Assembly: GCA_043228905.1 (NCBI GenBank)
Contig: JBHGNT010000014.1
Location: 8,308,001 to 8,372,000 of the forward strand
Origin: Azolla caroliniana
Lineage: Eukaryota > Plantae > Polypodiophyta
Length of the DNA: 64,000 bases
Reading direction: 5' to 3'
In this document: positions 38,201 through 64,000 of the stretch, piece by piece
Numbering within the stretch: the first letter of the stretch is position 1
Layout: every line of letters starts with the position of its first letter
The notes under the pieces: model-generated
Told to the model about the DNA's origin: nothing
What the model saw: the letters and a program-made list of their open reading frames with translations, nothing else
Databases searched by the model: none
Made by a program: the position numbers and the translations under genes

Positions 38201-38344
38201 CGCTCGGTTAACATTAAACATTGTGGAGGTTTAGGCCGTTACGGGGCAAGCATAATCGCCGCGAGTCTCGCGGCTTACGATCACCCTATGGGTCACAAAG
38301 CGACCGTTGGCGCCAAAAATTTTGAATTTCCCACGCAAAGCTCG

Positions 38345-38728
38345 TCGAAGCTTCAACCTTCGACGAACATTCAACCTCCGACGAACATTTAACCTTCGAC
38401 GAACATTCATCCTCCGACGAACATTTAACCTTCGACGAAGATTCATTCTTCGACGAACATTCATCCTTCGACGAACATTTAACCTCCAACGAAGATTCAT
38501 TCTCCGACGAACATTTAACCTCCGACGAAGGTTCATTCTTCGACGAACATTTAACCTCCGACGAACGTTCAACCTCCGACGAATCTTCAACCTCCGACGA
38601 AGCTTCAACCTCCGATGAAGCTTCATCCTCCGACGAAGCTTCAACCTCCGACGAAGCTTCAACCTGCGACGAATCTTCAACCTGCGACGAAGATTCATCC
38701 TTCGACGAAGATTCACCCTTCGACGAAC
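38345..38728. repeat. 18-bp tandem array (~21 copies) just upstream of gag
   Basis: TTCAACCTCCGACGAA(CA/GC/GA) repeated. Confidence 0.92.
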
Positions 38729-38772
38729 CTATAAAAAAATAAAAAAAATAAAAAAAAACTTGACCAGAAAAC

Positions 38773-40194
38773 ATGGCCGGATCCTCATGGACAGAAATGT
38801 TCAAAACCCGACCTGCACGCCTGGAAGAGTCCACGCAAACCGACCAAACCCATGATGTTGGCCTGCCTAACCCGACTCAGTACCACAGAGGGTGGCTAAC
38901 TCCGGGGATACTACCAAACAAGAACCTCCCATCGAGCCCAGGACCTAAAGCACTTCTCAACACACCCCCACTACAGGAGAGCCCACTCAATGTAGAACGA
39001 CATATACGAGACGCAACGCAAGAGTTACGAGTGATAGAACACGAAATCAATCTATGGACGGTACAACTTGCGAAAGGAGGACAACCGGAAAGCACCACTC
39101 GAGATATCGAAGCTGCTTTGGCCGAAAGGAAGGATAGATTCACACGAGTGCAACAAAAACTTCACCACCTAGAAACATCGTCGCACATACACCGCCGAAG
39201 TCAGGAGCACAGCCCCGTACCGCGTTTGAGCACAACGGGCGATAGCCCGAACGAAACCCGTGCACAACGACACCCGGCACCACCATCCATGGGCACAATC
39301 CCTACACCTGACCAAGCTACACCTACACCTCCAAACGCCGAACTCGCACTCGCGCTACAATCCATACAAACTCTTGTAGCATTGATGGAAAAAGAGCGAG
39401 CACCCATAGACCATCTGAGAAACCTCACAAATGACTGCGGGAAGAGTGCTTCCATTTCTAAACTAGTACCCCGTTTCCTCGGTTTCGGCGATGCCTATGA
39501 CCATGTCGAGAGGTTCAAACAGATTTGCCGCGCTTACGAACCCCTCACAGAGATCACCAAGGTAGCTGCGTTTGGACTCACACTTGATGACCAAGCCGAC
39601 ATCTGGTTTCGAACCTTGAATGAAGACATCGCCGCCGATTTCGAGTACGTCATCGAGGATTTCTTGATAAACTTCGCTCGTCGAGGGAATAAATGGAACC
39701 TGATTGACCAACTTTTCGCCCTCAAACAAGAAGCAAACGAAACGGTCAAGGACTACATACGTCGCACGAAAAGCTTGCATCATCGTTGTAGTCGGAACGA
39801 CAAGATGTCGGATGACAAGTTGACGAGCTGTTTCATTAATGGGTTGTTTGATACGACACTCCAAAATTTCCTGATTGCCCGAATGTGTCGATCGTTTACT
39901 GAAGCCTGCACAGTAGTGATGACCTTTGAAGATTCGATGAGTGGATTACACATACCCACTCACGCACCCACGAACAACCGCGAGAAATCCTCCGACCCCA
40001 CCCCTGCTCTACCCACACCACCGCGAACACCCCGTATAGAAAGACCCCAAGCATACGCCCAACGAGAAAATGTAAGGTGCACGGTATGTCACGGACACCA
40101 CACGGGACATGAGTGTCCCCTCCTTCATCAACGACGGCCGCAATACTGTAAGTGGTGCAAAGCTTTCGTAATGCATACGCAAGAGAACTGCTAG
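38773..40194 (+). CDS. gag: gag (473 aa)
   Basis: Retrotransposon gag core (DHVERFKQIC, ADIWFRTL, LKQEANETVKDY, FINGL) and two CCHC-like knuckles. Confidence 0.85.
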   Translation: MAGSSWTEMFKTRPARLEESTQTDQTHDVGLPNPTQYHRGWLTPGILPNKNLPSSPGPKALLNTPPLQESPLNVERHIRDATQELRVIEHEINLWTVQLAKGGQPESTTRDIEAALAERKDRFTRVQQKLHHLETSSHIHRRSQEHSPVPRLSTTGDSPNETRAQRHPAPPSMGTIPTPDQATPTPPNAELALALQSIQTLVALMEKERAPIDHLRNLTNDCGKSASISKLVPRFLGFGDAYDHVERFKQICRAYEPLTEITKVAAFGLTLDDQADIWFRTLNEDIAADFEYVIEDFLINFARRGNKWNLIDQLFALKQEANETVKDYIRRTKSLHHRCSRNDKMSDDKLTSCFINGLFDTTLQNFLIARMCRSFTEACTVVMTFEDSMSGLHIPTHAPTNNREKSSDPTPALPTPPRTPRIERPQAYAQRENVRCTVCHGHHTGHECPLLHQRRPQYCKWCKAFVMHTQENC

Positions 40195-43100: not shown

Positions 43101-44861
43101 TGTTGACGACTTATGTTGCAATTCGAAATGCCATGACCACTTGGGGCTACTCCGTTTGACGTTCGAAAAATGCAGAACCTATCAACTCTCTCTCAACCCG
43201 CTCAAGTGTCAGTTCTAGGTCAAGCACGGAATAATATTAGGACACGTCGTGTCCCGCCACGGGATCTCGAACGACGAGGCAAAAGTAAAACTCATCCTCG
43301 ACATGCCACCCCCCACGAACGAGAAACAACTACATGGGTTCATGGGATATGCGGGTTACTATAGACGCTTCATTAAGATGTTCGCCGGACAAGGCTAGAC
43401 CACTCTACTCCCTATTAAAGCAGTTCGTATGGACAGAGGAATGCACACACTCCTTCAAACTCTTGAAAGAGTGCCTAACTAAGGCTCCCATCCTCCGGCC
43501 TCCCAACTGGACCAAAGAATTCCACGTGCACACTGACGCTTCCGCCTTCGCGATTGGTGCAGTGCTAGCCCAACCCGGTGAAGGGGCACTCGACCTACCG
43601 GTCACCTTCGCTAGTCGCCAGCTAAATGCCGCGGAACGAAATTACTCCACGACGGAACGGGAGGCTTTGGCCATGGTCTACAGCGTAAAGAAATTCCGCC
43701 ACTACCTGTTGGCGTCCCGGTTCTCGTTTTTTGTAGACCATCAGGCCCTACTCTACTTAGTAAACAAAACTCATGCCACTGGACGCATCTCACGATGGAT
43801 TGTAACGTTACTCGAATTCGACTTCAAGGTAGTAGTGAGAAAAGGGAAAGACCATGTACTCGCCGATCATTTCTCCCGGATTCCCAACGGAGAAGAAGCC
43901 ACTGGGGTCGATGATGAAACACCAGATGCAGCATTATTTGCAATCGATACCGTACCAGCATGGGCATCAGACATAGTTCGCGTCCTAACCGAAGGAGCGT
44001 CCTTCCTAAAACAACTACCACGAACACACGCACGTGCCTTGCTAAAGAATTGTGGCCCCTTCACGATGCTCCGAGGCAATCTATACCGTCGAGGTAATGA
44101 CAATCTACTTCGGAGGTGTATAACAGACCATGATGTCGTCACCACCCTCGAACAAGCTCATTGCGGGGGCGGAAGTGGTCATTTCAATCACGAGACCACT
44201 GCGCGCAAGATCCTTCAGTCCGGCCTATGGTGGCCAACACTCTTCAAAGACACATACGCGTACGTACGTCGCTGTGACGAGTACCAACGTTTCAAACACC
44301 CGCTAAAAGCGAATTTTAATACGTTAAACTCGGTGGTGGCATGGCAACCATTCGAGAAATGGGGTATCGACTTTATCGGCCCAATCAGCCCAGCTTCCAA
44401 CCTCAACCGATACATAATAACCGCCACCGACTACGCCACCAAGTGGGTTGAAGCGAAAGCTTGCGTTAACGCTGACGCGGGTAGTACCGCCAAATTCCTA
44501 TATGAAAATGTCATCGTACAGTTTGGATGTCCGCTCGAAATCATTAGTGACCGAGGCTCACATTTCTTGAACAAGGTGATAGCACATTTATTAGGGGAGT
44601 TTTTGGTGACACACCGCAAAAGTTCTCCTTATTACCCTCGATGCAACGGACAAGCGGAAAGCACAAATAAGGTGCTATGTGCAGTACTCACAAAGATAGT
44701 CGCTGCCTCCCGATCTGATTGGAGCACCAAACTCCAAGCAGCATTATGGGCTTTCCGTTGTCGTAGTGTATTTTGTACACTACGTGAAAAACGTATATAG
44801 TATTAGATTCAATAAAAAATGAAGAAATAGAAGAAAATAGCAAAATAAATGGAACATGCAT

Positions 44862-44923
44862 AGGGCAAGATTCGAACCTTGCACCTCCATGTTAATAATG
44901 TAATGTCTTACCATTACACTAGC
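44862..44923 (-). promoter_or_regulatory. tRNA-like A/B-box cassette in LTR, antisense (copies ~47565-47626 and ~34851-34911)
   Basis: GCTAGTGTAATGGTAAG...GGAGGTGCAAGGTTCGAATCTTGC. Confidence 0.65.
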
Positions 44924-45435
44924 ATTTCATTAGTCTTAAAGCATAGATGTCCCACATAGAAAGGTAAATTCACGCTAGGATAAACATTAGAAAAACGCAT
45001 AACAAAAGAAAAAGCTACACATACACATCTAGCGTGCATGATAAAAAACGCACAAGTTAGAAAAAAGCATGATCACTTTAGATAAAGCATATAGTCTATC
45101 TATAGGAAAAGCATGGGGTCTATAGTTAGAGAAAAAGCATGGATTACTAAGACTTCCTCATCACTACATAAGGATAGGAAGCACAATGTAATTATGTGAA
45201 AAATATTTGGAAACTAGATATGTTTCTAAAAAACACCAATTAATAAACTATACTCGTGGGATTCACGAGTTTGCTATAACTCTTTCTTACAACATATTTA
45301 TATTCTTATTAGCCTTAAAACTCTCTTCTTCCTAGTCCAAAACCCCAGTGGTTCCCACCCGACTCACGCAAACGATCCGGAGCCGAAAGGCACGACACAG
45401 TTGGTGAACCCGACGTGAAGGCGGGTGGCAAGGAG

Positions 45436-47460
45436 ATGGAGAATCAACAAGAGGCAATGAGCATAACGATGATGATGATGTTCGAGCGGATGCTACAAGA
45501 ACAACGAGTGATGTCGGAGATCACGGGGGCAGTAAAGCGGCTCGTACAACGAAACGGACAATTCAACGGAAACGATGTGTCACGCTATCTACGTGACTAC
45601 AAGGCGGAGATGATACGATGTGGGATACCGGAAGGATTGCAAGTGACATCCTTCAATCGGGTGGCCACGGATGAGCTACAAGAGAGAATCCACAAGATAC
45701 GGCAACAAAACTCGACATGGGGGTCATTCGAAGAAGCTTTACGAGAGGCATATGATTACAAGAGATCAAAGGGACAAGATCGGCGAAAATTCGACGAATG
45801 GGTGGCATCGGAGAAGACCCACCGAAGTGCAACACAAGCATTCCTAGAGTTCGAGAATCGTTTTGCTCAACTCTCGGAGCGGGAACAACGGTTGGTGGGG
45901 GAGGATAAAGTCCTAATGTTCGTAAAATCGATCGATCGAAAAGAAAGGATGGACATTGGGATCGAACTCGAAGATGATGACGGTGCGAACGGCCTTACCG
46001 AGGATTGGGCTAAAGTCGAAAGGGTATGCCGAAGACATGATGAAAGGAAGCTGAGAATCTCGTCAACAACGACATGGCCCATGAAGGATGGTCGATTGAG
46101 GAAAAACGATGAAGCCAATATGAAGGCCGAAATACAACATGATGGTACCACGGGAGAAAGAGTGGAACAAGACACCCACTCGTCTTGTGAAAGAACGATG
46201 GCGAAGGATAAGGCCGATAATTCAAGTGTAGAAGGAAATTTCGGGATACAAGTGCCCGAGACATCGGGTCAAAAAGGGGTAAGCATAATAGATGTTTGCA
46301 TAATTGATGCAGATAAAGAGTGTGAAGCGGATGTGATTAAGGAGGTAGCCACAAAAGACGAAATCGAATCGGAGGTGGCTATGGACGAATCAATGGCGGA
46401 TTGCGATATCGAGACTTCCCCACCACTGATTCCAGAGACTCCGGCGGTTGCGATCGAAAGGCAACGTGAGACCGAAGAGACGGAAGGTGGCAGAGAGAAA
46501 ACGAATGTCGAAGCCGACGAATACGATGAAGAGATAGCCGAGAAGAATGCTAAGGGTGAAACTACGAAAGAAGGTAATACCGAGGATTCATGCCAACAAT
46601 ATCTAGAGACTTCGGCGGTTGTGTCCGAGAACCAACGTGAGACCGGAGAGACGGGAGATGGCGGCGAGGAAGGTAAAGTCGGAAGTCGGTTCGGATGGAA
46701 AATGATCCATCCGAAATTCCAATCTAAAAGAAAGTGCGACAATGCGGAGGTCGGGTCTACGACGGGAGAAGCGCGTAATACAGAGCACGCTCTACGGCGA
46801 ATAAAGAAACGCGTGTTATGGCGAATAAAGAAGCACGCGCTACGGCGAGAAAAGAAGCATGCATTACAACCACATGAGGACCGAACAACGAGCACATATC
46901 GGAGGACCTACGTAGCGAACAACGGAAAGAAGTGCCGAAAGTCGAACCGGACAAGGCAGGTGAAAACGAAGAAAAGAAAGCAAATCCGGACGAAAAGAAA
47001 AGAAAAGAAACCGACCCGAAAGAGCACTGAATCGGTAAAAACCGATCAACCGAGTCCGGATCGACCGAATACAAATCGGAAAGGAAGCCGAACTAAACGA
47101 AAGACGATCCGACGAGACCGAATCGGAAGTAAGCTAATCCGACTAAGCCGAAAATCCGAAAAGAAGTCGAGATTGATGAAGAAAAGAAAGAGGGCAAGAA
47201 AAGATACTACCGCGGATGACAAGGACCAAGCGGGCCATGCAAAAAGCGAACGAAGACTATGGTGGATCGGATGTCGACAATGGTTCGGGTGGAAAGAATG
47301 GATGTGCTCCAAATGGAGAGACAAAGTCAACATAACAAGAGAAGTCGAGGGTACTACGAGCCGGCAACGAAACCAATCGGGTAGAGACCGGACGGAGGAG
47401 ACTAACAAACACCAACAACTTCGGCACATACCGGAGGATGTGCGGGTTCGGAGGGGGTGA
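45436..47460 (+). CDS. Gag-derived protein with acidic middle and highly basic C-terminus
   Basis: N-terminal ~200 aa homologous to gag at 1470-3509 (LVQRNGQFNG.DVSRYL); uninterrupted to a TGA next to the 3' LTR. Confidence 0.8.
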   Translation: MENQQEAMSITMMMMFERMLQEQRVMSEITGAVKRLVQRNGQFNGNDVSRYLRDYKAEMIRCGIPEGLQVTSFNRVATDELQERIHKIRQQNSTWGSFEEALREAYDYKRSKGQDRRKFDEWVASEKTHRSATQAFLEFENRFAQLSEREQRLVGEDKVLMFVKSIDRKERMDIGIELEDDDGANGLTEDWAKVERVCRRHDERKLRISSTTTWPMKDGRLRKNDEANMKAEIQHDGTTGERVEQDTHSSCERTMAKDKADNSSVEGNFGIQVPETSGQKGVSIIDVCIIDADKECEADVIKEVATKDEIESEVAMDESMADCDIETSPPLIPETPAVAIERQRETEETEGGREKTNVEADEYDEEIAEKNAKGETTKEGNTEDSCQQYLETSAVVSENQRETGETGDGGEEGKVGSRFGWKMIHPKFQSKRKCDNAEVGSTTGEARNTEHALRRIKKRVLWRIKKHALRREKKHALQPHEDRTTSTYRRTYVANNGKKCRKSNRTRQVKTKKRKQIRTKRKEKKPTRKSTESVKTDQPSPDRPNTNRKGSRTKRKTIRRDRIGSKLIRLSRKSEKKSRLMKKRKRARKDTTADDKDQAGHAKSERRLWWIGCRQWFGWKEWMCSKWRDKVNITREVEGTTSRQRNQSGRDRTEETNKHQQLRHIPEDVRVRRG

Positions 47461-50002
47461 GTGTCGTAGTGTATTTTGTACACTACGTGAAAAACGTATA
47501 TAGTATTAGATTCAATAAAAAATGAAGAAATAGAAGAAAATAGCAAAATAAATGGAACATGCATAGGGCAAGATTCGAACCTTGCACCTCCATGTTAATA
47601 ATGTAATGTCTTACCATTACACTAGCATTTCATTAGTCTTAAAGCATAGATGTCCCACATAGAAAGGTAAATTCACGCTAGGATAAACATTAGAAAAACG
47701 CATAACAAAAGAAAAAGCTACACATACACATCTAGCGTGCATGATAAAAAACGCACAAGTTAGAAAAAAGCATGATCACTTTAGATAAAGCATATAGTCT
47801 ATCTATAGGAAAAGCATGGGGTCTATAGTTAGAGAAAAAGCATGGATTACTAAGACTTCCTCATCACTACATAAGGATAGGAAGCACAATGTAATTATGT
47901 GAAAAATATTTGGAAACTAGATATGTTTCTAAAAAACACCAATTAATAAACTATACTCGTGGGATTCACGAGTTTGCTATAACTCTTTCTTACAACATAT
48001 TTATATTCTTATTAGCCTTAAAACTCTCTTCTTCCTAGTCCAAAACCCCAGTGGTTCCCACCCGACTCACGCAAACGATCCGGAGCCGAAAGGCACGACA
48101 CCGTACTTCCTACAAAGTCGCAACTCGCCACACACCATTCAAACTGGTGTACGGGCAAGAAGCAGTATTACCCATCGAGTTCCTTGTCCCTAGCCTCAGG
48201 ATCGCCGTAAAGGAACGATGGGAAGGGGACCCCCTCCCGTCATGCCTAGAGAACCTAGAACGACTGACAGAAACTCGCCTTCTCGCATTCCAGGCACTCT
48301 TGGCAAAGAAAGCCAATAGAAAGGTGTGGCACGACAATAAAGTCAAGAACAAAGACCCCGCAGAAGGCGACATGGCCCTTAAATTCTCCTCTCAACGACA
48401 CAAGAAGAAGTTGAAGCTACGGGGCGAAGGCCCGTATGTGGTTTCAGAGGTTACCAAGACAGGAGCATGTCGCCTACGCATGATCGAAGGTTTTGACATC
48501 CCCGGGTTCATTAATGGGAGCAAGCTCAAACGTTACTATGGACCCCTCACACTCGAGGCTCTACTCACGGCTCGGCAACGAGAGGTAGAGGCCAAATTTA
48601 AAGCCTCCGAAGGCCGAATGGCCCTGCTCGAAACCAACCTGCGCAACACGCAAGCGAAATTGAAGCGACAGGGACACGCCCATCCGACAGCCATGGCTCG
48701 GGCGGCCAACTCTAATGATGGGACAATACAACTACAATGTCGTGTCGACGACATGCCTTTGTCGGCGGTAATCGACACAGGAGCATCGCTAACCCTTTTC
48801 TCCTTTGAAACATGGAGACGTCTAGGTTGCCCAAACCTCGAAGTGTGCATCGACAACTTCCGTGGCTTCGATGGGTCTACGTCATGTTGCTTGGGAATCT
48901 TCGGGTGTAACATCAAGACAGAATACAGCGCGCACTTAATCCAAGTTTGGGTACTCCCACCCGGAGTGATGCACACACAATGCCTCCTCGGTTTAGATTG
49001 GTGTCACATAAGCGAATGTCTCCTATCACCTAGCAAACACATCGTCTCTTTTCAAACAGGAGGTGGGCTGAAGTCTGAGGACCTCCTCGCAACAACACTC
49101 GAATCACATCCCGTTGTCCTCGCTGACCCCCAAAGCGTGGAGCTACCCAAACAAGCAACACACCGACACCCATTGGCCGCCCATAGCCAATGCAACACTT
49201 ACAGTAGAACACAGACACCCAAACTACGAGAATGGGTGAACGTCCACGCTGTGTTCGCTGAAGGCCCACGCTACGGAGAGCGTGCGGTATGGCGAGTCAG
49301 GAAAATACTCACAACCGCACAAGGGTGGCACAATGGCGCCACTAGCGTCTGGGTCCCGAAACGAAGCCGACTCCCCAGTCTCGATCATACCACGCCTGCA
49401 GGGGACATCAATGAACCCCAAGACGCGGAGTCGCTCAACCAAACCAAACGCCAACATCCATTGGCCACCCAAGACCAGCGCGACGTTGACGTCAGAACAC
49501 GAACACCCAAACCACGGGAATGGGTGAATGTTCACGCTGTTTTTGCGGACGGGCAACGTTGTGGAGAACCCGCCATTTGGCGAGTCAAAAAGACACTCAC
49601 AACAGCACAAGGTTGGTACAAAGGCACCACTAGCTTTCGGGTCCCGAAACGAAGCCAACTCCCCAGTCGCGATCATACCACGCCTGCAGGGGACACCCGA
49701 AAAGCACACACATCGGCCCGGTATCCCGCCCAGGCTAAAGCCACAGGAAGCGACAAGCCTAAACAACGGAGAGACCGAACACCCCGTAGGAAGGTTTCAC
49801 AAATCCTCCCCACCCCCTTAACAAACATGCCGCAGGTTTAGATCCTTAAAAGTCACAGATCCGGAACCTCACACGATACCCAAGTGACACTCCCTCCACA
49901 GTCGCATCCTCAAGGTTCCTCAAAAGCCCTTAATTTACCCAATCCCCTACCACGTTCCTCGGAGACCCCCGTTTAGACCGCCCTCACCATCGATATCCGA
50001 AT

Positions 50003-50355
50003 CCTTTTTTATTTTTTATTTTATTTTTTGTTTTATTTTTTATTTTCTATTATTTTTTTTGTTTGTTAATTTTATTTATTTATTTATTATCTATTTAGTT
50101 ATTTTTATTTTTTAATTAATTTATTTATTTTTATATTTTATTTAATTATTTTTATTTTTATATTTTATTTTATTTTATTTTATTTTATTATTTATTTTTT
50201 ATTTTCTATTTTTTTTTTTTTTTTTTTTTTTTTTATTTTTTATTTTTTTATTTTTTATTTTTTATTTTTTTTTATTATTTATTATTTATTATTTATTATT
50301 TTTTAATTTTTAACTTTTAATTTTTTTAATTTTTTTAATTTTTTTAATTTTTTTG
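50003..50355. repeat. ~350-bp T/A low-complexity tract
   Basis: Almost only T and A (TTTTA units), between pol and the 3' extra region. Confidence 0.9.
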
Positions 50356-51047
50356 CTTTTTCTTTTCTTTCGTTTTTCTCCTTCTTCTTCTTCTTCTTCT
50401 TTTTTCTCCTTCTTCTTTGCTCTACCTCCCCTCCCTCCTTTTTTTCACCCTCCTCTTTCTGCTTGTCCCCTCCCTTCTCACTCCACGCTTCCACGCTCTG
50501 CAGTAGTCTTCCTCCCCTCCCCGCTCACACTATTCCTCCCCTTGCCCCCCCCAATCTCTGTTGTGGCTTTCTCCCACCCTTAGCAGCCCCGCCCCTCCTC
50601 CACCGGTTGCCTGCGCCGGTCGCCGCCTCGCCTCCCCCACACCTTGCTTTCCCACGCCTTGGGTAGGCCCTCCCTTCCCCCCCCTCTCTCTCGTTTTGAC
50701 ACACCACACTGCACTCCCCTCGTACCTGCCCTTCGTTCCTCTGCTGGGGCCATGGCCGCCGCCATGACGCTGTCCTCCTCCTCTTATCACCGGCACACTA
50801 CGGGCCTCCCAGCCGTGGCGGCCATCGCCGGCACACTACGTCTACTCTACTCCCGTGGCGGCCATCGTCGTTGCCATGTCGCCGCCACCCCTCCTCGTGG
50901 CGGTGCCCGTCCACGCTGCCCCACCGTCCCGACGTTTTTTCTCTCTTTCCCTTCTTTCTTTTGTTCCCCCCGAGGTGGTTGCGACAGCTGCCTCGTCGTT
51001 TCACCCTCCCCACGTCATTGGCCGTTTCCAGCCCACTCCACCGCGTG

Positions 51048-51605
51048 GTTCGAGGGACCCAACCCCTCGAACCACCCGTTGTTCGAGGGGCCAAACCCCT
51101 TGAACTCCCCGTTGTTCGAGGGGCCCAACCTCTCGAACTACACAACGTTCGCGGGGCCCAACCCCTCGAACTCCCCATTGCCCGAGGGGTCCAACCCCTC
51201 GAACTACACAGCGTTCGAGGGGCCCAACCCCTCGAACTCCCCGTTGTTCGAGGGGCCCAACCTCTCGAACTACACAGCGTTCGAGGAATCCAACCCCTCG
51301 AACTACACAGTGTTCGAGGGGCCCAACTCCTCGAACCACACCCGGCCCAACCCCTCGAACTACACAGTGTTAGAGGGGCCCAACCTCTCGAACTACGCAG
51401 CGTTCGAGGAATCCAACCCCTCGAACTACACAGTGTTTGAGGGGCCCAACTCCTCGAACCACACTCGGCCCAACCCCTCGAACTACATAGTGTTCGAGGG
51501 GCCCAACTCCTCAAACTACACCCGGCCCAACCCCTCGAACTACACAGTGTTCGAGGGGCCCAACTCCTCGAACCACACGTTGTTCGAGGAGTACAACTCC
51601 TAGAC
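51048..51605. repeat. 33-bp tandem array of palindromic units (~18 copies)
   Basis: GTTCGAGGGG-CCCAA-CCCCTCGAAC plus 8-nt linker. Confidence 0.92.
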
Positions 51606-51875
51606 CACGTAACCCTTCGTTGTAACGTTATTGCGAAGTTAGGACCAAAAATAATAAATAAATAAATAACACAGGTGGGGGGGAATTTATGGCAACTACT
51701 CGAACTCGCTGCTTCGTCACCACATTTACCCGAGTTACTCCGTAGTTAGGACTCCACGTCCCACTCCCAAAAAAAAAAAAAAAACCCAGCCGGGGAATCT
51801 ATTGAAACTACCCATACTTGCTGATTCATCACCACAGTTACCTATACTAATATTTTTCCTCGCAGGTTCCCAACG

Positions 51876-54800
51876 ATGACGCCTCCCCAATTTATCAAAC
51901 TCCTCCACCCATACTACCCCGACGCAGGGTGCGGTTCCTTAGTCATTCCAGCGGTGTTCAACAATACCCGATGTACTTACCGGGTTCCCACGGCCGCCAC
52001 GCAACTCAAGTACCTCGAACCCGACGTGTTTGCCACGCTCTCACGACTTGGCCTCAAGTTCTTCCTTGGGATCCGGCCGTGGGGCGTCCTACCCGAACTG
52101 GTCAACCGTTTGCTCAACGGGTAGGACGCCCCACGTCGCATTCCAGTTCACCACGGCCGACGTTTGTGCTACGCTGCATTTACCCCTCGAGGGCGCCCCC
52201 TTCCGCACCACAAGGACCCCGGGGGTTGTCCCCGGCATCATTCCTGTCGCCTACGCCGAATATTCTGGACGTGAAGGGTGGCGTTACACCGAAATCCCTC
52301 TCCATCTCTATGACCGTTGTAGCGCCATAGCCCAAATCGGCGACACCGCATCTACCGACGCCACCGCTCGCATCACCGGTGAGTACCTCAAGTGGGCACA
52401 TGATCCACAACCAGTCCAGTGGGCTCACGAGCTTGTCTGCGAGAATGGCACACACGGCCCAAATCGACTGTCAAATTCGCGTGGTTCCTCACCCGCTACT
52501 TGTGCGCCAAGTTCAGCATTGGACCCCCCGTCCCTCCCTTCGTACGCTGCCAAGAACGCTTCCGCAAGATCACTGTCCCAAGTCAACTCGAACGCCTTCA
52601 TCTACCTGAACGTGACTTTTTACGACAAGTGCACCAAGGCGAACAGGCACGGCCACCAGCACACAAACAACCCCCGATGACCCGCGTGTCAGCCGAAGCT
52701 AACCTCAACACCCCTGAGGATATCACGAATCGTGTCAAGGAATTCCAGACACACGAGTTCACCCCCACCGAAATCCAAGCCTTGTCCACCACTTTCCACT
52801 ATGTGTCACATCAGACCACAACCACGACTCCGCGTTCCCGCAGCTGCACCACTGAGTCAATCTTACGCGACCAACGGAACCCGCCAACCCCGCCTCCACC
52901 CACCTCACCAACCCCTCCACCCCACGAATCCTCTCCCCCCGCTCCGGCCACAACTACCCCACCTTTCTCGTCCACCACCACCGACGACACCCCGCAACCC
53001 CGACCCCATAAACTCGCCCGCCACACCGCTCCCAACACCGAAACCCCCGACCGACCCCCGACCGCAACCTCGGTAGTTCCTCTCCAACCCACCCTCGCCC
53101 CCGCCCAAATGACAACCCTGCTTCCACCACCCCCCCTCCCGACCTCCGTGCCCCACCCGACCTCCCTCACTGCAGCTACTACCCACCCTACCTCCTCCCC
53201 CGCCGTCCCCCCCAAACCCTTAACCGACATGGTGGCCGACCTCCTAAAGATGACTGTCGTCGTGAACCGCCGCCTACTTCAAGTTCAGGCACAGGCCCAA
53301 CAGACCGCCACCAACCAACACGAGACGTCTACACGGAACGAGATCTTGGTCGCTGAGGTACGGAGCGCCCTCCATACCAACACATGCCAAGCGGCTGCCC
53401 ACGACCTCCTCAAGCAAGAACTCTTGACAACGCAAACCCGACACCAACAACTCGCTGACGAATTCCAACAAGCTCGGACAACTTGGCACCACGACTAGGA
53501 ACGCGCTGCGCAAACACATGCCGAACTTTCGGCCGAGTACATCCGCCTCACCACCCAACACCAACTGACCGAGGCCCGCCTCGCAGCCGTGACGGCTGAT
53601 CTCTCTGAACGGTCCGAGGCCCTTGTCGCCGCCATGGCCACCACTCACCAACTCACGAGCGAGATCACCACCCTCAAGGTTGAACGAGATGCCATGATCC
53701 ACCAAGTCGAAGTCGCCAATGAACGCAATCGATGTCTCCTCACCAAACACCGTCGCCAATGCGCCGACCTCGAAAAGGACATCCTTCAACTACGCACGTC
53801 CAAAGCCGCCCTTGAACATGCCCTCACCCCCGGTGCGATGGACCCCTCCACCGGTCAGACCCCTCTCCTTACCCCAGCTGGCTCTCCGAATATGATCCAG
53901 GAGGCACTCTCGGTGTACGTGACCTCGACCTTCCTACTCTCCGAACTTTTCACTGCACCACGCACACCACGCACCCTCCTCATCCAAGCAACATGCGTCC
54001 TTCGGTCGTTAGCCGCCACGCGTCGCGTATTCTTTGACGAAACCACACCCCCAGACCGGCAGACCTTCATCCGAGTACTCCCCGAAGACAACCACGCCCT
54101 CGCCCTCTTCATGTTATACCAGGAAGCCACCGAAGAACCCGCTCCCCTAGCCGGCGACCTCTTCCCCCAACACCTCCCCATTTTGTTCCTCGAAGGTATG
54201 GCCTACCTTCACACCGCCCTCACCCCCGACTTGGACATCGCCGACCTGATCTATTTCACCTACCCTTCTGATGTCACGATGCAAGTCACTGAAGACCAGT
54301 TGGCCTACCTCTTCACAACACTGGTGCGCTTACACCACATCGCCGACACCCTCACCCGCTCCCTGTTGGAAAACACAACGACCTCCGTACCCCCTTTCGG
54401 TTTCCTCTGGCTAGTATGCGCTTGGCAAACCGCCTGGGATGTCGGGGTTCGTACTCACATATTCAGCATCGAATATGCCACATTCAACTGGCCCACCGAC
54501 CTCGAGGCTGATGACATACCGGAATTAGCCCTATACCTCGACGTTTCCCACGAGTATCAACTCATGAAGTTCGATGAGGCTCGTGCTCGTGCCCTCCTAC
54601 CCCCGCACCCCGCTTCTCCCCCCCAAGAGATCGACCTGAAGGGGGACCACGACTCACCTGATGAACCCGACACCCAGCCACCTCCTCGCCCTCGCCCTCC
54701 CTTCTCCTCGCTGCCGCACACCCCACCCCCACTCGCAGGTGGCACCACCCCGTCGCTGACCCCCTCCTCGAACCTCCCGGCACCCAACCCCCATGGCGTC

Positions 54801-55545
54801 TCCCTTGGTTCGCACACACATCCTTCCGCGAATGGCTTGCCCGCCACCCCCCCGAGTTACGCACCAACCTCACCTTTTTTCCCCTTCCTCGTCGTTGGCC
54901 ATGGCCCGATTTTCGCGCTGCCCAGGCACGCCTACCCACCCTTCAATTCAACTGGCCGTTGTTCCCCCGACCCCCGTGCACATCCCCGATCGAACCCGAC
55001 ATGATCCAGGTCATGCGACGATTCCTACGTACATACCTCGACGTCCCGGACCCCGACATTCAAGCCAGCCTTCGTTTTCTACAACTTCTACTCATTCTCC
55101 TTGACTCTGGCCCGTACGAAACCCCCCCTTCCAACGGCACAACCACCCAACGTGGGGCCTCGCCTTCAATTTGAACAAAGGTCCAACTCGCCGCCAACTA
55201 GTCGGCCTCTGGACCCGCGTCAACATCCTCCCCGCAAGCTACAAACGGGATTTTGAAACCATGATCGACACACATTTTTTCCCCGCTTACATAAGCTTTA
55301 GTCGAAACCCCCCTTCTCCCTTCGCCGGCCACAACACCTGCATCTGGCTCACCGGCCCCAAGAAAGATTTCTTCACAACAACCGACCAACTGCAGGAAAT
55401 TCGGCTACCACCACTGAACATCCATCGTCTTCGCCATGATCTCCGCCGCCACCCACCCCCCGACGAACCCCCCTACTCAATTCTACTCGCCCCCGACACC
55501 CGAAGCTCCCCTCCCACAGTGCACTCGGGAGTCTACACTCATTAG
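51876..55545 (+). pseudogene. Extra 3' ORF (env-position), decayed, ~1200 codons
   Basis: ORFs at 51876, 52419 and 53589 share a frame; Pro/Thr-rich linker and coiled-coil-like segment; preceded by TACTAAT-pyrimidine-CAG acceptor (51865); ends at the PPT. Confidence 0.65.
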
Positions 55546-57095
55546 GTTGGGGGAGATGTTAAGCGTTGGGATAACAACACAACCAGTCACGAATAAGAAC
55601 GCATCAACAAGGACGTAGTACGAAGAGGAAACGGCAAGAGGAAAGGAAAGCAAAGAGACGGCCAAATGTGAAAGGCCCATACCCTAAACGTGAAAGCTAT
55701 ATAAACCACATAGTAGTGGCTTTGTGGGGGTTCTCCCATTTGTAAAGATCTCTGATTGATTAGAGCTAGAGCTTCCTCTCCTCTTTCTTGTAAACCTTTG
55801 AGCTTAAGAGAGATTGGTGAAGTGTTGAGTTAGAGAACACTAATCTCTCCCCTTGTTGGTGCTAGACCTCTTAGCAAAGAGGGTTAATAATAGACATACT
55901 CTTGCTTCTTATTGTCTATACTATTGATCTATTGTTTATGAGAGAGAGAGCTTGAGAGAGTGAGAGAGATATCGTGCTTAATCATTTACTAATCGTTGAG
56001 TGAGTGTGAGGCTCGGAGGTATCCGACCACCATCTCCGCCCGATTCGCCATCAAGAGGGTATACGCCGGTCCGAATCCCGCACGACATCGAGGAGCTTAC
56101 TCCATCGATACATAGATCCTTAACACTTGGGGACCGATCTACAACTTGTCACCAATCAAGCTAGAAGTCCTTCGAGCCTACATAGAGGAGAATTTGGTGA
56201 ACGGGTTCATTCGACAATCGAAATCTCCAACTGGCGCACGCATTTTCTTTGTCAAGAAAAATGATGGATCACTTCATCTCGTTGTAGATTACCGTGGCTT
56301 GAATAAGGTCACCATCAGGAATAGGTATGCACTTCCCCTTATCTCAAGTCTTTTAGAACAGATTAATGGTGCAAAGTTCTTCACAAAAATCAACTTACGA
56401 GGCGCATATAACCTCGTACGGATCCAGCCAGCAGATGAATGCAATACCGCTTTTTGCACCCAATACGGGCACTTCGAGTATATAGTTATGCCATTTGGTC
56501 TCACCGATGTGCCAACACTCTTCCAACACATGGAAAATGATATATTCTGAGATCTCTTGGATATCTGTTTGATCATCTATTTGGATGATCTAATACTTTA
56601 TTTGAAGACTCAAGAAGAGCATGATTCTCATGTACTATTAGTACTAAAACGACTTCGATAACATGGTCTTTATGCAAAACTGGAAAAATGTAGTTTTGAC
56701 TGCAATCATGTGGAATTTCTTGGCCATGTCATCTCCTCGGAAGGCATCTCTATGGATCCAACTAAGGTCAAAACTGTGGTAGAGTGCCAGACTCCTCGTT
56801 CATTGCGAGATGTGAAATGTTTTTTAGGCTTCGCAAATTTCTACTGCAAGTTTATACAGGACTACTCAAACCTTATTTTGCCTCTCACACAACTTACCAA
56901 GAAGGGGCTTTCGTTTGTTTGGTCTAAGGAAGCAGACACGGCTTTCGTTTACATCAGCTCCTATTCTAGCTCATGTTGATCTAAAAAAACCGTTCATCAT
57001 GGAGGCAGACGCTCGGTCACAACAAGGTGATGATGAAAAACTACATCCAGTGGCTTTACACTTATGCAAGTTTGACGCCGCCAAAATCACGTACG

Positions 57096-58015
57096 TGTTA
57101 CCCCGTACGAGATGTATGGAAAGTCAAGTGTGATGAGCGAGGGTCAAATGTTATCATGATGTTGTTGTGTATGTGTAGGGGGCATAAATGTAATTGTGAG
57201 TCTATACGTATGTGAACACATGCACACGTGTGTGCATGTGGATGGATACGAGGAGGTGTAAGTGAGTGTCTAGTATGAATGCTCGAGGGGGCTTACACCC
57301 CTATGTATCTACCCCCTCTTGTACTATTTAACCCCTTATGGGGAATGAATGAAACATGAATAACCATTTCTCTTTCTCTCAATCTCTCTCTTGTCATCTC
57401 TCTCTTCTATCTCCCCTTCCATTGAACCCCCTTGGGAGGGGGGTGGAGCCATTCTAGGCACCACCCCCCACCCTGCAATGCTTCTCAATGCACATGATCT
57501 CTCTCGCCATCAACCCAGACTCTCCATCATCATCATAACCACCATGTCTATCTTTATCATGATTATCATCGTCCTGAACCCTAACCCTAAAACCTACAAC
57601 ACTTTTTGGCGACCACTAAGGTGACCCCCCTTTGGATACGAAGTCAAAGACTAATACGTGGCAGAGACAGCAACAACGAAATGTGCGATAATGGTAATGA
57701 TGATGTGTGACAAATCGAATTTATGATGAGTAGCAAATCAAATCGGTAATGTGCAAGAAATGGTGACCACAATGTGGTGGAAATGGCCATGATAACAAAA
57801 AAAAAAAAACAATCATAGCGACAACCGGAATGACGGAGAGATCGACAACAACGATGGCCTGACCGAAGACAAGTGGGACGACAACTAGATAGCTGAAAAG
57901 ATATGGTCGTTCATGCCGAACAACAACGGAGATGACCGAGGACGACAGCCGGGATGAACGAAGACAGTCGGACAAGGTCGACAACGACAGATATGCGAAG
58001 AGACAAAGACCGTTG
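57096..58015 (+). mobile_element. Truncated TGTTACC-family element (5' LTR 57096-57601, PBS-like 57607-57625)
   Basis: TGTTACCCCGTA start, CCCCTTGGGAGGGGG block, ...ACAACA-CTTTT-TGGCGACCAC; interrupts host RNase H; right boundary approximate. Confidence 0.7.
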
Positions 58016-58953
58016 AAGAATGACGAGTTATTAGCAATAGTGGATTCTTTTGCACAATGGAGGTATTTTTTAAAGGGGTCTTCTTATCAAGTCACCGTGT
58101 TCAATGATTACAAAAATCTTGCCTATTTCCAGAATGCTCGTGTATTAAATCAACGACAAGCTCGATGGGCCTAATTCCTCACTCGTTTCGACTTCAAAAT
58201 TACATGTCATCCGGGGAAGCAGCAAGGGAAGGTAGATGCATTATCGCGGCGCTCGTATCTAGCACCTCATCCTGGTGATCCAACATTCGATAATCAAAAG
58301 CTAGTCGTCTTGGGACCAGCACGACTACAAGCAACGTAGGTTTTTGACACTCCATTGGATTCCCGCATTATCGAGACCATACTTGAAGACTTGTAGATAG
58401 ACGCTTTCGTTCAAGCCATTCTAACGCAAATTGATGTTATTCTCTGACCGGACAAGGCCTAACACAAGGTGTCACGGAGACACTTCACCAAAGGGTGATT
58501 ACGGCATAGGAATAGTATTCAACGATTACACCGACTTACGTAGGTTACACGATTAGAATGCTTTGGTTAATTACACGCGTAAGATATAACAGTAATTACA
58601 GAACGGAAATCAAGACAGAAGTATAAACATCATAAGCTCTATTAATTATCCGCTGCGATTACAATGGGGTCCGGGCCTTTAAATAGGTTTCCGGCCCGTA
58701 GTACAAAACGGTGCCTATCGCACCTATTCGGGATCCGTCCGGATCTGGAACGGCATACCATTTCCAGTCCGTCCGTCCACACTATGCTTATTTACAACCA
58801 TACTTAATTAACTCCTTCACTCCGTATTTTGGACTCCATGCCGGCCGGTAACACATGGCACGCCCGTGGGACAGTACCTTGTACGTCGAACCCTTCTCGG
58901 CCCCTTCATTGTTCACCCAAATTGTCCAAAATATCTTGTTCCAGAGTTTCCAA

Positions 58954-61846
58954 TTATTCTTCCGGTTGTGGTTGTTGCGGCTGTGCTTGCTGCTGCTGCT
59001 GCTGTGGTTGCGGTTGGGACTGAGGCTGCTCCGGCTGCTCTGCTTGCTGCTGCTGCTCCGTTTGTTTCGTTGACTCCGGCTGCTCCGTTTGTCTCTCTGA
59101 CTCCGGCATCTCCGTTTGACTGCTTCCGGTCCGGTCTCCTTCCAGTAACGGTTCCTCATCACTGAGGTTGACCGTAACCGGTTCTCGTTCTTTCTCTCCC
59201 CGGATCCGGGACCTCTCGTAGCTTTCAAACTGGATCTGCGCCTCCAGCCTGTCGTCGTCCAGCTGAGCTACAAGTTGTCGGACCTGCCCTAGTTGGTCAT
59301 CTGCCAAGGCTTGAAAGTCTTCGGAGCTCATCTCTTATGCCGGTGAAGTCTTCGGAAGTCAGCATATAGCAATCATCTCCCTCCTTCCGCCGGTTCTCTA
59401 CGTCGGCCCGGAGCAATTGGAGTTCCGCCGCGTTCGTGGCCCACTTGGTCCACCATTTGACGAAACCGTTGTCAATCAAGCTCTTGGTCTGGTTCAACCA
59501 GGCCCGCATGATATCCTGGATGCGACTTGCTCCCATTTGCGCTCTGCTTTCCACCACTTGTCGCTCCTCCTTCAACTGCTTGATGAGATTCGCCGTATCC
59601 TCCGCCTGCTCTCTGTAGCGCGTCAGCTGCCCTTGATATGTCGTTTGCAGGCTCTGCAGTACCTCCGCCGCTCTTTCTTTTTCCGCCTGTTGTTGCCTGA
59701 GGAGCTCTGTCCGAACCTTCTCCGCCTCTTCCAACCGTCTTCTGGTTTCCGCTTGTTCCTTGGCGAATGCGGTTGCGGTCCGATCAACTGCTTGCCGGAG
59801 CTCATCCGTCTGTTCCTTGTGCTCCGTTTGCAACCGTTTATACTCCCGGTGCAAGTTCTCAAATTCCTCTGTTTTTTGTTTGAGCTTGCCGTTGATCTGG
59901 CGATGGTTCCGGTCCTCCCGGTCCTTTACCTACCGGAGTTCCTCTTTCAGGCGCTCTACTTCTGTTTCGGCGTTTCTCCGGAGCCTCTCCTTCTCTTGCA
60001 GCATTTTCTCCTTCTCCTCCTTGAGCCGGTCGTACGCTTGGTGGCCTTTCCGTAAGCTCTCCTCGGCCCGGCGTAGATTCTCAGCAGTCTTTTTGAGTTC
60101 TGCCTCCGCTGCCGTCTTCAATTCTCTTTCGCGGCTCCTCAGCGCTTCTTGGGCAGCTAGCTCATCCTTTAAATCCGCAAGCTCTTGGGCTTGTGCCGCA
60201 TTTCTCTCCGGAACGGTTTCCGTTGCCGGGGTCTGATTGCTATGTACAGGTTGATCTGCCGCTTTATTCGGTACATTGCCCGGAGTCACCGGTGCTTGGA
60301 CTTGTGTTGTCAAAGCTAATTGAGCCATTTCCCTTGTGACCCTGTCCAAGTCTTGTTCAAGGCTCCGGATTCTGGACCGGGCCGTCTCTAGATCTACGGT
60401 TGTGACGAGCAACCGTTCGTTGTGCGCTCTCTCCTCCGCCTCTATGTACTCGACCGCTCCGGCGATCTGCTCACCTACCCACCGTAGCCACATGCTACTG
60501 GTGCCTTGCTGCTGTACTGGTCCTACTCCTTGGCTGCCGTGTGTGCTGGCTGGGCTCGCCGGCTGTTGAGTTCCGGTTCTCGCCGTCTCCGGAGCCGTTG
60601 GAATAACTTCTTCTATAGAAGTCGCCAATGCTGGTTCCATACGCACCGGTTCCGGTTCCTCCCTTGTGGTTTGCTCAGGTTGAGTTGGGGGCGTTTCTTC
60701 CTCTTGCGGGTACGAACGCTCCCCCGCTGTCCCGGCGGTCCTACTTCTTGACCGTCGTTGGAGGTGCTCTTCTGGCTCCTCCGTTTCCTCTTCCTGGGTA
60801 ACGGCCTGTTTCTGTGCCGTCAAGGGTTCCGGTTCCTTCTGTCCCGGTCGCCATATGGTTATCTTAACGGGTCGGACCGGTGACACCTCCTCCGGTTCTG
60901 TGACCCGTTTCTTCCCTTTCGTCGCCTTCGACGCCAGCAGCTGCTGTCGTTTGGACGCCGGCTTCGAGGTGCTTCCTTCCGATACTCTTGGCCGCTTCTT
61001 TGGCTGAACGGTCTCGACCGGCGGCACGAGCAATGTTATCCACTGAGCTACGGCATGCCACAGCTTCTGGCCCTCCTTGCCGTCCTTTCCTCGTACCATG
61101 TCGATTGCCACGCACAAACCGTCTGCAATCAACACCGGCCAATCCACCTTGGTCCCTTCATAGGTGGCTATGATCATCCCTGCCCGATTTTTTGGCATGA
61201 CAGGGGGTCGGGGGTACACGTGGCCGTACTCATGGAGCACTCGAGCTATCTCCCTGAATAGCGGATCTTCGCCGCCCTGCGTTCGATAGCCTTTGTCGGC
61301 AACAGAGTACTCACCGAAATATCGGATGAGTTGCTCCGGGGTTGGGTTATCGATCTGAAAGATACCTCCCTCCGGAAGGCCTGTTAGCGCACGGATCGCT
61401 TCCTCGGTGATGACTTCTATGTCGAGCTCCTTGATGACCCGGTCGGCTTCTTTGTGCGGTGGTGCCTCCATGATGGCCAAGAACCCCTCCAGTCCGTGTT
61501 GTCTGAACCATTTCTTGGCCGCTTCCGACAGCGTTTGTGGTTCCATGTCTGCTTCGAGGTCGAGGGAAGATGGCGAGGTAGAGTGGTGCTGAGAGTGAGA
61601 GCGAGAGAGAGAGCGTTCCGAACGTGGGGGTTCTCTGCGTGCAGGTTCGCGTTTGCTCAGCTTCCACTGCCTTGGTGTTTCTGTGCTTCTTGGCTCGCGA
61701 AATGAAAAGGTCTCCATGCGTTCTGCTTCTTCTTTGTGCGTTTTGGCGCCTTTTTCGAGCATGCACCCGTCGTGTACCAATTTAGTATTAAGTAGCGTGG
61801 CGGCTCTTAAATGCCCACTTCGTACCTTTTCACTCCTTGCTTTCAC
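58954..61846 (-). pseudogene. Extra ORF downstream of pol (globular N-terminus, acidic linker, long coiled coil, Q-rich tail), frameshifted
   Basis: ORFs 59930..61846, 59297..59854 and 58954..59331; homologous remnant at ~8978-9379. Confidence 0.75.
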
Positions 61847-61915: not shown

Positions 61916-64000
61916 TTACACATCCGTAGGTCCCTTCGGACCCTTACCGTTTTCCTTACGGGTTGCCGTGTCTTCCTTCGTCTCTGCTACGGGTTCCCCG
62001 TCGTCTTTTTCTTCCATCCGTACCGTTCCGGGACAGGTTCCCGGTATAGTGCCGGTGAGCTGCATAAACGGGTTCTTTGGCATCGGTCCTTTATAGGGCT
62101 TTAGTCGAAATCCGTTCACCCACTTGCCTAGTACTTCACCGGCAAGTGTCCCTATCTGATAGGACCCGTTGTATTCCCGTGTCAGCCAATACGGGCCTGT
62201 CCATCTGAACCGGAGTTTACCCGGCATCTTGCCCATCCTCGTTTGGAATACTAGAACCGGCTTTCCGATTTCGAACATCTTTTCGTTACCTTTCCGGTGA
62301 CGGTCAACGAACGCTTTCCGTCGTCGTTGCTCCAGGTCCATGTGTAGGATGTTGGCCAGCCATTGCTCCTCCAGTTCGCATAGTGCTGCTAGCGGCATTT
62401 CCTCCGACTTCTTTTCATTCAGCCGTTCCCGTAGTTGGATCCGTAAGCTTGGTACCTGAAATTCCACCGGCATGACTGCCTCTAAGACGAACGCTAACCG
62501 GAACGGCGTTGTCCGGATACTTGTTTTGTATGCCGTTCGGTACGCCCATAGCGCGCTATGGAGCTTTGTGTCCCAGTCCGTCCGGTTTTCATTGACGATT
62601 TTGCGGAGAATGTTCTACAGCGTTTTGTTGGTGGACTCTGCTAACCCGTTCGCTTGTGGGTAGTACGGTGTGCTCCGTTTATGAACCACGGCATAGAACG
62701 TTGTTAAGCTTTCCACTACCTGGCCGAGGAAGTGCCCTCCTTGGTCGCTGATTAATTCAATCGGACATCCATATCGGCACCAAATGTTCTCGTACAGGAA
62801 TTTTGTTGTGGATGACGCGGTATTGTCTCTCAAGGCCTTAGCCTCCACCCATTTAGTGCAATAATCCGTTGCCACGATGACATAACGATTACCCGTTCTC
62901 ATTGCCGGTGGCTTGAACGGTCCGACAAAATCCAACCCCCACTTCTGGAATGGCTCTAGTGGAAGTACTGGTTGGTGTGGCGTCCGTGCTTGCTCCGTAG
63001 GCTGGCCCATTTGCTGGCATAGGTCACATTCCTTAGCATACTTGACGGCGTCTTTTAACGTCGTGGGCCACCATAAGCCGCTCTGCCATACTTTCCTTGC
63101 CGTCGCTTCCCCGGCATAGTGTCCTCCGGCAACCCCACAGTGTGCTTCCCGTAAGATTACTTCTTTCTCGTCACTACGGACTGCCCATCTCCATATTCCA
63201 TCTGCTCCTTTGTGGTAGAGAGTGTCCCGTAACAGACAGAAATTGCGGCTCTGCACCGCCAGTCGTTTCCTCTCGTCCCGGTTCATTTCCTCTGGTGGCA
63301 GGCCCGTGCTTAGGAACTGGTGCATGTTTGTCAGCCACCTATCTTCTGATGCCACCGTGTCGTCCGCTGCCGTTTCCGGGGTAATACGGAATAACTCTGC
63401 GTCCGGGAATTCATCCGCTACTCCGTCGCCTGGTTCTCCGGACTCTAACCGGCTCAGGTAGTCTGCTACGGCATGCTGGATACCGGGCCGGTGGAAAATC
63501 TCGAATTCGAACTCCTGCAACAGCAAGGTCCAACGGGCCAACTTACCGGTCAGGGACGCCTTGGACACTAAGTACAGGAGCGCCGAGTGATCCACATGAA
63601 AGGAGAACTTCCTTCCCAATAGGTAATGACGAAACTTTGTGACACTGTAGATCATGCCCAGGGCCTCCCGTTCCGTCGTTGAATAGTTCTTCTCCGCTTG
63701 GGACAGCTTCCGGCTGGCGTAATATACCGGCCGGTACCATTTGGGCTCCGTAAGTTGCATTAAGGCGCTGCCGATAGCGATGTCGGAAGCGTCAACGAAC
63801 ACATGAAATTCCTTGCTCCAATCCGGAGGCTGCACGACGGGTGCTTGCGATAAAAGTACCTTAAGGGCATTGTATGCCTTATCCTCCGTATCCGTCCATT
63901 GGAACGGTGTCTGATGTACCGCGGTGTGTAATGGTGTAGCCAAGTCAGCCAAGTGACGGAGCATCCGGCTGTGCCACCGGATCTGTCCTAAAAATCGGCT
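61916..64000 (-). pseudogene. pol: pol: RNase H + integrase with one in-frame stop at 62615-62617
   Basis: FVDASDIAIG, NYSTTEREAL, AHCGVAGGH..CDLCQ, WGLDFVGP, ISDQGGHF, NGLAES, WTGPY. Confidence 0.93.

Follow-up and report, generated by a model that had tools for sequence, protein, structure and literature searches.

Priming of the plus strand from a polypurine tract (PPT) is treated as universal for retroviruses and retrotransposons with long terminal repeats (LTRs) in the accessible text of two accounts (PMC5371799, PMC10886601). As far as the first of these describes it, yeast Ty3 follows the order Gag, protease (PR), reverse transcriptase (RT), RNase H (RH), and integrase (IN), starts its minus strand from a tRNA and its plus strand from the PPT, and carries a 3′ tRNA site that is complementary to the tRNA on the RNA and lies inside U3 (PMC5371799). 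The element studied here has its 3′ LTR at positions 58435 to 58853 of a 64,000-nt stretch of Azolla caroliniana DNA (contig JBHGNT010000014.1, positions 8,308,001 to 8,372,000; hereafter, the window), which is a nest of LTR retrotransposons. Its lineage shares with Ty3 the gene order, the tRNA-primed minus strand, and the intact acidic catalytic residues of RNase H, whereas a sequence identical to a tRNA stands at the position of the PPT. This replacement of the PPT is real, conserved, and present in coding elements. It is apparently undescribed: we found no account of it in the literature searched, most subscription papers and Repbase reports lying outside that search.

Other known 3′ signals resemble this site in part. 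Drosophila gypsy has two tRNA-Lys sites, and the second of them likewise lies close to the 3′ end of its RNA; in the available part of its description (PMC1635307), however, that site, on the genomic RNA, is complementary to the anticodon and T stems, cDNA synthesis can do without it, and the PPT is retained. The Helenus, Ajax, and Cassandra miniature terminal-repeat retrotransposons (TRIMs) likewise contain tRNA-derived sequence, including in nonautonomous elements; in the accessible sections on these elements (PMC10886601), it lies within both LTRs, provides A and B boxes as a promoter, and accompanies a primer-binding site (PBS) as well as a PPT. In contrast, the tRNA copy described here is single, lies outside the LTR, has a CCA end and a split B box, replaces the PPT, and occurs in coding elements as well; its single copy, location, and split B box rule out Helenus (TRIMp3) as an identification. 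The Sirevirus junction between PPT and 3′ LTR, as presented in the available portion of PMC2829016, is alike in being a structured and strictly conserved motif with an inverted repeat, shared by divergent members and set 2 nt before the TG of the LTR, but it is a purine octamer in Ty1/copia elements, without tRNA identity.

The site immediately precedes the 3′ LTR on the minus strand. A 38-nt block starts 13 nt after the last stop of an extra open reading frame (ORF) and comprises a copy of tRNA-Arg(UCU) nt 51 to 58 (GGGTTCGA; 58886 to 58893), a 13-nt insert with a 4-bp hairpin (GTAC-AAG-GTAC; 58873 to 58885) between tRNA positions 58 and 59, and the 17-mer GTCCCACGGGCGTGCCA (58856 to 58872), which occupies the PPT position and equals nt 59 to 76 of the tRNA, CCA end included, minus one C. 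The 2-nt spacer TG (58854 to 58855) separates the CCA from the LTR (419 bp, TGTTACC...TAACA; TATA-like box TATTTAAA at 58685 to 58678). Compared by per-position counts with the tRNA gene found in a related metagenomic locus, L002, the block corresponds to tRNA-Arg(UCU) nt 49 to 76 with one C absent and 13 nt inserted between 58 and 59; the window copy is without nt 49 and 50, which most relatives retain, and the best copies (L002) are identical to the real tRNA at 27 of 28 nt. A preliminary description of the window had called the motif an inverted PBS, a name that understates the match, which continues past nt 59 to nt 49 to 51 across the hairpin. Purines account for 8 of the 15 nt before this LTR and for 11 to 12 of 15 before the other five LTR pairs checked in the window, all of which, including a Ty3 element with 46% identical pol, have a recognizable purine tract. 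With up to three mismatches allowed, the window contains three matches to the 17-mer against 0.05 expected: the one described, a copy at 34389 to 34405, and an ordinary PBS at 32491 to 32507, next to the 5′ LTR of a nonautonomous element. The second, as had been noticed, shares the motif (16 of 17 positions) and the TG spacer and lacks a purine run (again 8/15).

RNase H, integrase, the extra ORF, and the TATA-like box are all on the minus strand, which confirms the earlier reading of 58853 to 58435 as the 3′ LTR belonging to a Ty3/gypsy element on that strand. The 3′ part of pol (RT thumb, RNase H, and integrase by Pfam-type domain matches; 61916 to 64000) is 72 to 81% identical to the intact pol of relative L075, and an in-frame stop interrupts the integrase core at 62617 to 62615. 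The extra ORF (eORF-3′F; 58906 to 61546, in the sense of pol) has acidic and coiled-coil character without a Pfam family, and it is broken by stops at 59932 to 59930 and near 58957 and by a frameshift near 59320. Because of the integrase stop and the broken extra ORF, neither of them mentioned in the preliminary description, the window copy cannot be autonomous; it represents, in defective form, a non-chromovirus Ty3/gypsy family that lacks a PPT and whose open-frame members P0001 and P0121 are each 94% identical to it. Relatives of the extra ORF include P0121 (972 aa, 94% identical) and the homologous, intact 1,194-aa ORF of L075; an atlas look-up with P0121 gave best scores of 0.76 to 0.79, and one cluster containing Transposase_28 is a lead only. 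The LTR matches those of 11 loci at 73 to 78% among the matches listed, with contigs running off at 58435. The flank at 58430 to 58434 reads ATTGA on the plus strand, as reported previously; it is a candidate target site duplication (TSD) and falls in the RNase H region belonging to a different Ty3 pol, on the plus strand. The matching TSD and the 5′ LTR of this copy lie beyond the window.

Scanning of metagenome contigs with the 17-mer plus TGT as the query returned at least 124 matches in at least 121 loci, with long flanks for 80 loci. Thirty nucleotides of upstream sequence were available for 114 of these matches and resolved into 86 unique contexts, including six that are probably chance or rearranged; all counts of loci and unique copies below are among the matches listed. 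The tRNA positions 49 to 53, unsearched by the query, are each retained in 71 to 80 of the 86 unique copies, and the spacer before the LTR is GG or TG in 64 of them. The distance from CCA to LTR edge is 2 nt, or 4 nt in some families, and mirrors PBS geometry, while the longest purine run before the LTR does not exceed 5 in 97 of 121 loci. The exact 17-mer recurs in coding families whose extra ORFs are only ∼30 to 50% alike and in noncoding families with unrelated LTRs. This range, together with the conservation and covariation of unsearched parts, upholds the earlier proposal of a conserved cis-signal rather than an accident. In four public runs under three organism labels, summed contig depth (which is not copy number) peaks on the block, and 52 to 84 contigs per run exit the stretch at 58893 into unlike sequences, indicating that many internal sequences share this 3′ end. 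The C-to-T and G-to-A changes of the block sit at CG or CHG sites in a wobble comparison of which the scan pattern filtered one side. ARAGORN found no tRNA in the window, and Rfam gave one chance match. A hairpin-led pattern scan hit 28 bacterial sequences and one viral sequence, none followed by the tRNA tail and thus due to chance; the motif, pol, and extra ORF had no matches in viral contigs, and the extra-ORF profile had none in genome contigs.

The hairpin insert bears its own signature of conservation. Its 4-bp stem is perfect in 54 of the 86 unique copies, compared with a mean of 13.8 and a maximum of 25 in 2,000 shuffles, and four main stem types occur (GGAC, GTGC, GTAC, and GGGC, each with its complement). 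Among 52 ungapped copies selected by hand, namely 50 of the 86 and both copies from the window, double changes at the two middle pairs number 24 and 23, and the covariation score is 0.403 versus 0.201 ± 0.018, with slid controls at or below 0.118.

Some loci show unusual arrangements of the block. L002 carries, at 1190 to 1265, a tRNA-Arg(UCU) with CCA in antisense, ∼460 nt upstream of the block, in sequence resembling the extra ORF at the contig end; it may have arisen by retro-copying of a tRNA, be a gene with CCA next to it, or stem from a join made in assembly. Two blocks lie on opposite strands in L031, with their LTRs head to head within ∼600 nt, and 721 nt apart in L073. In L054, a PBS-like site merely 250 nt before the block marks a possible TRIM.

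Protein probes from L075 showed that 42 of 121 loci have the extra ORF, and 5 have integrase, upstream of the block in sense orientation. Gag in antisense occupies that place in none of them, and gag in sense comes after LTR and PBS in 6 loci (collapsed assemblies). The scenario that the preliminary description had named as fatal to its reading, a separate plus-strand element whose 5′ LTR is fused to unrelated pol, is at odds with these counts. L075 is a full element, with LTR, PBS TGGCACGCCCGG, a 1,797-aa gag-pol ORF, the 1,194-aa extra ORF, block, and LTR start, and thus bears both primer sites, both LTRs, and intact genes. An ordinary PBS follows the 5′ LTR in L075, L010, L022, L045, and L048, and these relatives, like the nonautonomous element at 32164, show the paired TG...CA LTRs expected of Ty3/gypsy elements. 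Over the 19 loci in which it was typed, the 5′ PBS is TGGCACGCCC in 11 and TGGCGACCAC in 8, the former being of Arg(UCU) type (it matches the L002 tRNA) and the latter what we take to be a tRNA-Arg(UCG) PBS. The 3′ signal stays Arg(UCU) in both, which excludes PBS pairing as its general role. In nine loci (L007, L012, L013, L028, L040, L041, L058, L064, and L077), the 5′ PBS is just 10 nt long and then continues into a conserved (T/G)ACGG whichever tRNA is matched, as if the 5′ PBS were a swappable module.

RNase H precedes integrase in the window, and Gag, RT, RNase H, and integrase follow in this order in a single ORF of L075, the arrangement of Ty3/gypsy elements; the PPT expected of that group is absent before the 3′ LTR (8/15 purines). 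No chromodomain was matched by Pfam at an E value of 0.05 in the integrase tail of the window or in the pol of L075 and L056, setting the lineage apart from chromoviruses. The intact L075 and L056 pol proteins contain just a Ty3-type RNase H and no additional archaeal RNase H (aRH), and therefore do not belong to Tat (TatI to TatIII, Ogre, Retand); the pol segment in the window gave no aRH match either. According to the available text of PMC6317226, Athila and Tat elements of the OTA group are alike in their ∼10-kb size, extra 3′ ORF, 5-bp TSD (seen here for a nonautonomous element), and lack of a chromodomain, and Ogre, TatIII, and Retand share the tRNA-Arg PBS; here, in contrast, neither aRH nor PPT is present, and the Arg-type PBS differs from the mostly Asp, Asn, or Ala PBS of Athila. 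Phygy and Selgy, described in the same accessible text as having a 4-bp TSD, a tRNA-Trp or tRNA-Ala PBS, and no extra ORF, were ruled out by the extra ORF, the Arg-type PBS, and the 5-bp TSD of the element at 32164. Compared with OTA lineages by their descriptions, the lineage thus appears to be an OTA-like non-chromovirus Ty3/gypsy group with an extra 3′ ORF, and the RNase H tree places it as a distinct clade among unlabeled relatives. Named pol relatives come from Riccia, Marchantia, and Adiantum (38 to 56% identity), the closest ones being in metagenome assemblies, and the best PDB match of P0005, a 92%-identical relative, is Ty3 RT (4OL8; E value, 7e−71).

From these sequence features, we lean slightly toward a reading in which a second tRNA, supplied by the host, binds the minus-strand DNA at the tRNA copy and starts plus-strand synthesis there. 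After minus-strand synthesis, RNase H would remove the RNA and expose the site on the minus-strand DNA, whose two parts would pair with tRNA nt 76 to 59 (one tRNA C being bulged) and 58 to 49, with the 4-bp hairpin looped out between both parts at the 58/59 step; A58 of the tRNA is presumably methylated. RT would then extend the CCA 3′-OH through the 2-nt spacer into U3, as at the end of the PBS. Folding of the 54 perfect-stem copies is consistent with such a junction: the hairpin is predicted to form in 11 of 54 copies folded as plus-strand RNA, in 39 folded as minus-strand DNA, in 36 folded as plus-strand DNA, and in all 54 when the minus strand is paired with the tRNA, and the 49-to-58 arm adds −11.3 kcal/mol to the tRNA duplex, compared with −3.9 kcal/mol for shuffled upstream sequence (54/54). 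A broader version, which we put forward tentatively at somewhat under even confidence, holds that the whole lineage, coding and noncoding, dropped the PPT and that host tRNAs prime both strands, the second on DNA via a three-way junction. The RT thumb and RNase H would have changed to extend the tRNA:DNA hybrid, and the site would act as a lineage-wide licence served in trans by any coding family.

Several observations weigh against this priming by a host tRNA. The 17-mer was set by the scan query, and its invariance among loci holds by construction; within the block, C56 of the tRNA is replaced by T in 23 of the 86 unique copies, breaking a pair, and the T-loop part is more variable than the stem part. 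The covariation rests on about four stem types, that is, on few independent events. The cofold result is also partly by construction, as tRNA on both flanks leaves little else to fold, and it uses RNA parameters as a proxy for the RNA:DNA hybrid; folded by itself, the block does not outdo shuffles (z of −0.12 to 0.93), plus-strand DNA forms the hairpin too, and CCCAC inside the element offers GTGGG an equally good partner. RNA primers that sit on DNA are normally cleaved by retroviral RNase H. Finally, a self-encoded primer can be invariant across divergent families, as is the Sirevirus PPT octamer in the available text of PMC2829016.

This last point leads to the main alternative, which we hold to be doubtful: the tRNA-tail copy in the element's own RNA would withstand RNase H, be cleaved at the CCA or immediately beyond it, possibly once RT has paused at the hairpin, and act in priming as a PPT does, a single capture of the tRNA having made the tRNA itself dispensable since. 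Such a self-encoded primer fits the position, that of a PPT, equally well; a hybrid sequence that protects the tRNA would also protect identical genomic RNA, PPTs are strictly conserved among divergent members (PMC2829016, accessible part), and the one-base deletion relative to the tRNA is fixed, so that the site is not re-copied from the tRNA. However, such a primer does not need the retained T-arm bases 49 to 58, and the covarying hairpin is impossible in a full RNA:DNA hybrid and forms in just 11 of 54 folds of the RNA alone. It is unlikely that the block serves instead in minus-strand initiation or first strand transfer, by annealing to the 5′ PBS as a panhandle, or to those 5′ strands that are freed in the primer tRNA, and so bridging the RNA ends like the Ty3 and gypsy 3′ sites, while the plus strand is primed at an unrecognized site. 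Indeed, 11 of 19 loci have a 5′ PBS complementary to the final 10 nt of the block, and 3′ tRNA-binding sites exist in Ty3 and in Drosophila gypsy (available text of PMC5371799 and PMC1635307). Those sites, as described there, are found on the RNA as complements of the tRNA, in elements that also have a PPT, whereas here no purine tract is left, and the CCA and fixed spacer would be superfluous. Eight of the 19 loci, including all four LTR relatives of the window copy that reach the LTR end, carry a PBS for another tRNA that is unable to pair, and the panhandle was therefore rejected as the general role of the block.

Read on the opposite strand, the junction runs LTR end, 2-nt spacer, PBS, and extended tRNA pairing, as though it were the true PBS of an antisense transcript or of bidirectional replication. 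This is very improbable, as every gene and also the TATA-like box belong to the other strand and an antisense RNA would not provide the full U3-R-U5 plus PBS for the second transfer. We give almost no credence to an artefact or relic, be it a fusion of unrelated pol to the 5′ LTR of some separate element on the plus strand, a Pol III B box, or a neutral tRNA scar. In plus-strand reading the site does look like any 5′ LTR-PBS junction, and the block includes the tRNA B-box region, but the extra ORF ends 13 nt before the block and is found upstream in sense in 42 of the 121 loci, antisense gag in none of them, and L075, with both LTRs, a 5′ PBS, and intact genes, contradicts a fusion, which was rejected. 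A Pol III promoter was discarded as well: the insert splits the B box, T55 is C in 37 of the 86 unique copies, and the stem changes are compensatory.

If a host tRNA does prime the plus strand, altered RT and RNase H could, by a weaker line of reasoning, allow the tRNA:DNA hybrid to be extended instead of cut. The preliminary description had suggested looking for lineage-specific changes in RNase H, and such changes exist: W-[YF] occurs in 32 of 57 RNase H domains, in a position where the others mostly have x-D, and those 32 form one clade that includes the window, L075, and L056. By alignment to 4OL8, N297-Y298-Y299 of the Ty3 thumb helix (G294-M-I-N297-Y298-Y) reads R-W-H here. The W-H replacing Y298-Y299 is found in 18 of the 19 clade proteins showing this region, in one sister sequence, and in none of five outside relatives. 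Thumb-helix mutants of Ty3 reduce RNase H activity (available text of PMC5371799). Counting against a role of these changes, they are tied to a known block in only 3 elements and to a known PPT in only 1, and we treat their link to the tRNA site as a lead. F-x-D-D at the RT active site was not specific to the lineage among the pol relatives compared. Distant pol relatives P0101 (Adiantum), P0004, P0106, and P0096 have the W-H thumb and/or W-[YF] RNase H, which suggests, at the level of protein comparison, that the lineage reaches ferns. A decayed second clade member (23659 to 8921, minus strand; PR, RT, RNase H, integrase, and extra-ORF matches) is split by an element at 11389 to 21915, and a Copia-like insertion near 7500 cuts into its 3′ end.

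The other bearer of the signal in the window is a nonautonomous plus-strand element at 32164 to 34730 (TSD CTTCT/CTTCC; 5′ LTR, 32164 to 32486; PBS, 32491 to 32500; tRNA copy with hairpin, 34366 to 34405; 3′ LTR, 34408 to 34730), for which the coding element had been put forward as candidate autonomous partner. The 47-nt blocks before the LTRs at 58853 and 34408 are identical at 33 positions and the LTR bodies show no significant similarity (best blastn E value, 0.68), consistent with the reported ∼30 nt of further likeness next to dissimilar LTRs; the termini are common to both (TGTTAC start, AACA end). The hairpins differ (GTAC/GTAC versus GTGC/GCAT), as do the PBS sequences, which are TGGCGACCAC in the four LTR relatives of the window copy that reach the LTR end and TGGCACGCCC in the 32164 element. 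LTR starts were clustered for 129 block copies, of which 51 have the extra ORF upstream, 26 lack it in at least 900 nt, and 52 are too short. The window coding copy stands alone, the 32164 element groups only with two noncoding copies, a related cluster of 10 has one coding member (L012) and four noncoding ones, and the largest cluster contains 19 coding copies and 3 without a match. L012 has, ∼2,230 nt upstream of its main match, a junction at which an extra ORF's end meets a block with changes of its own and the LTR of a noncoding family; L012 may represent a true type of partner, have arisen by recombination, or be a product of assembly. The shared cis-signals (3′ primer site and LTR termini) are common to many coding families too. 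The lineage is thus a plausible source of RT and integrase for the noncoding copies, and any of its coding families might mobilize noncoding families with the same signal. The partnership proposed earlier survives at this level and not for the window copy, given its stops, including the one in integrase, nor for its family in particular, which is one candidate among many and is not singled out by LTR, hairpin, or the 5′ PBS of its relatives. LTRs of the nonautonomous superfamily also lie at ∼57080 to 57620 (plus strand) and 6805 to 6490 (minus strand); the former is followed by PBS TGGCGACCAC, so the superfamily uses both 5′ PBS types.

If true, a large natural PPT-less lineage would show that plus-strand priming can be rewired, would offer a natural RT variant for studying the choice between extending and cutting RNA primers, and would imply that PPT-dependent annotation tools could miss or misorient such elements. 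Even a self-encoded primer would be a nonpurine, tRNA-derived plus-strand primer. The signal occurs in elements encoding their own RT, which makes the proposal testable, as enzyme and substrate are both supplied.

The window contains further elements. The related Ty3 element with 46% pol identity, which served as the PPT control, spans 37176 to 56125, with 99% identical LTRs, a PBS and a PPT of the ordinary kind, and long extra ORFs that contain tandem repeats (51002 to 51604). Elements at 44759 to 48104 and 3544 to 4340 have PBS TGGTGAACCC, which we take to be a tRNA-Trp PBS, a 4-bp NCGN TSD (CCGT), and LTRs 99.8% identical, pointing to recent insertion. They fit the description of Phygy in the available text of PMC6317226, but have only a gag-like ORF.
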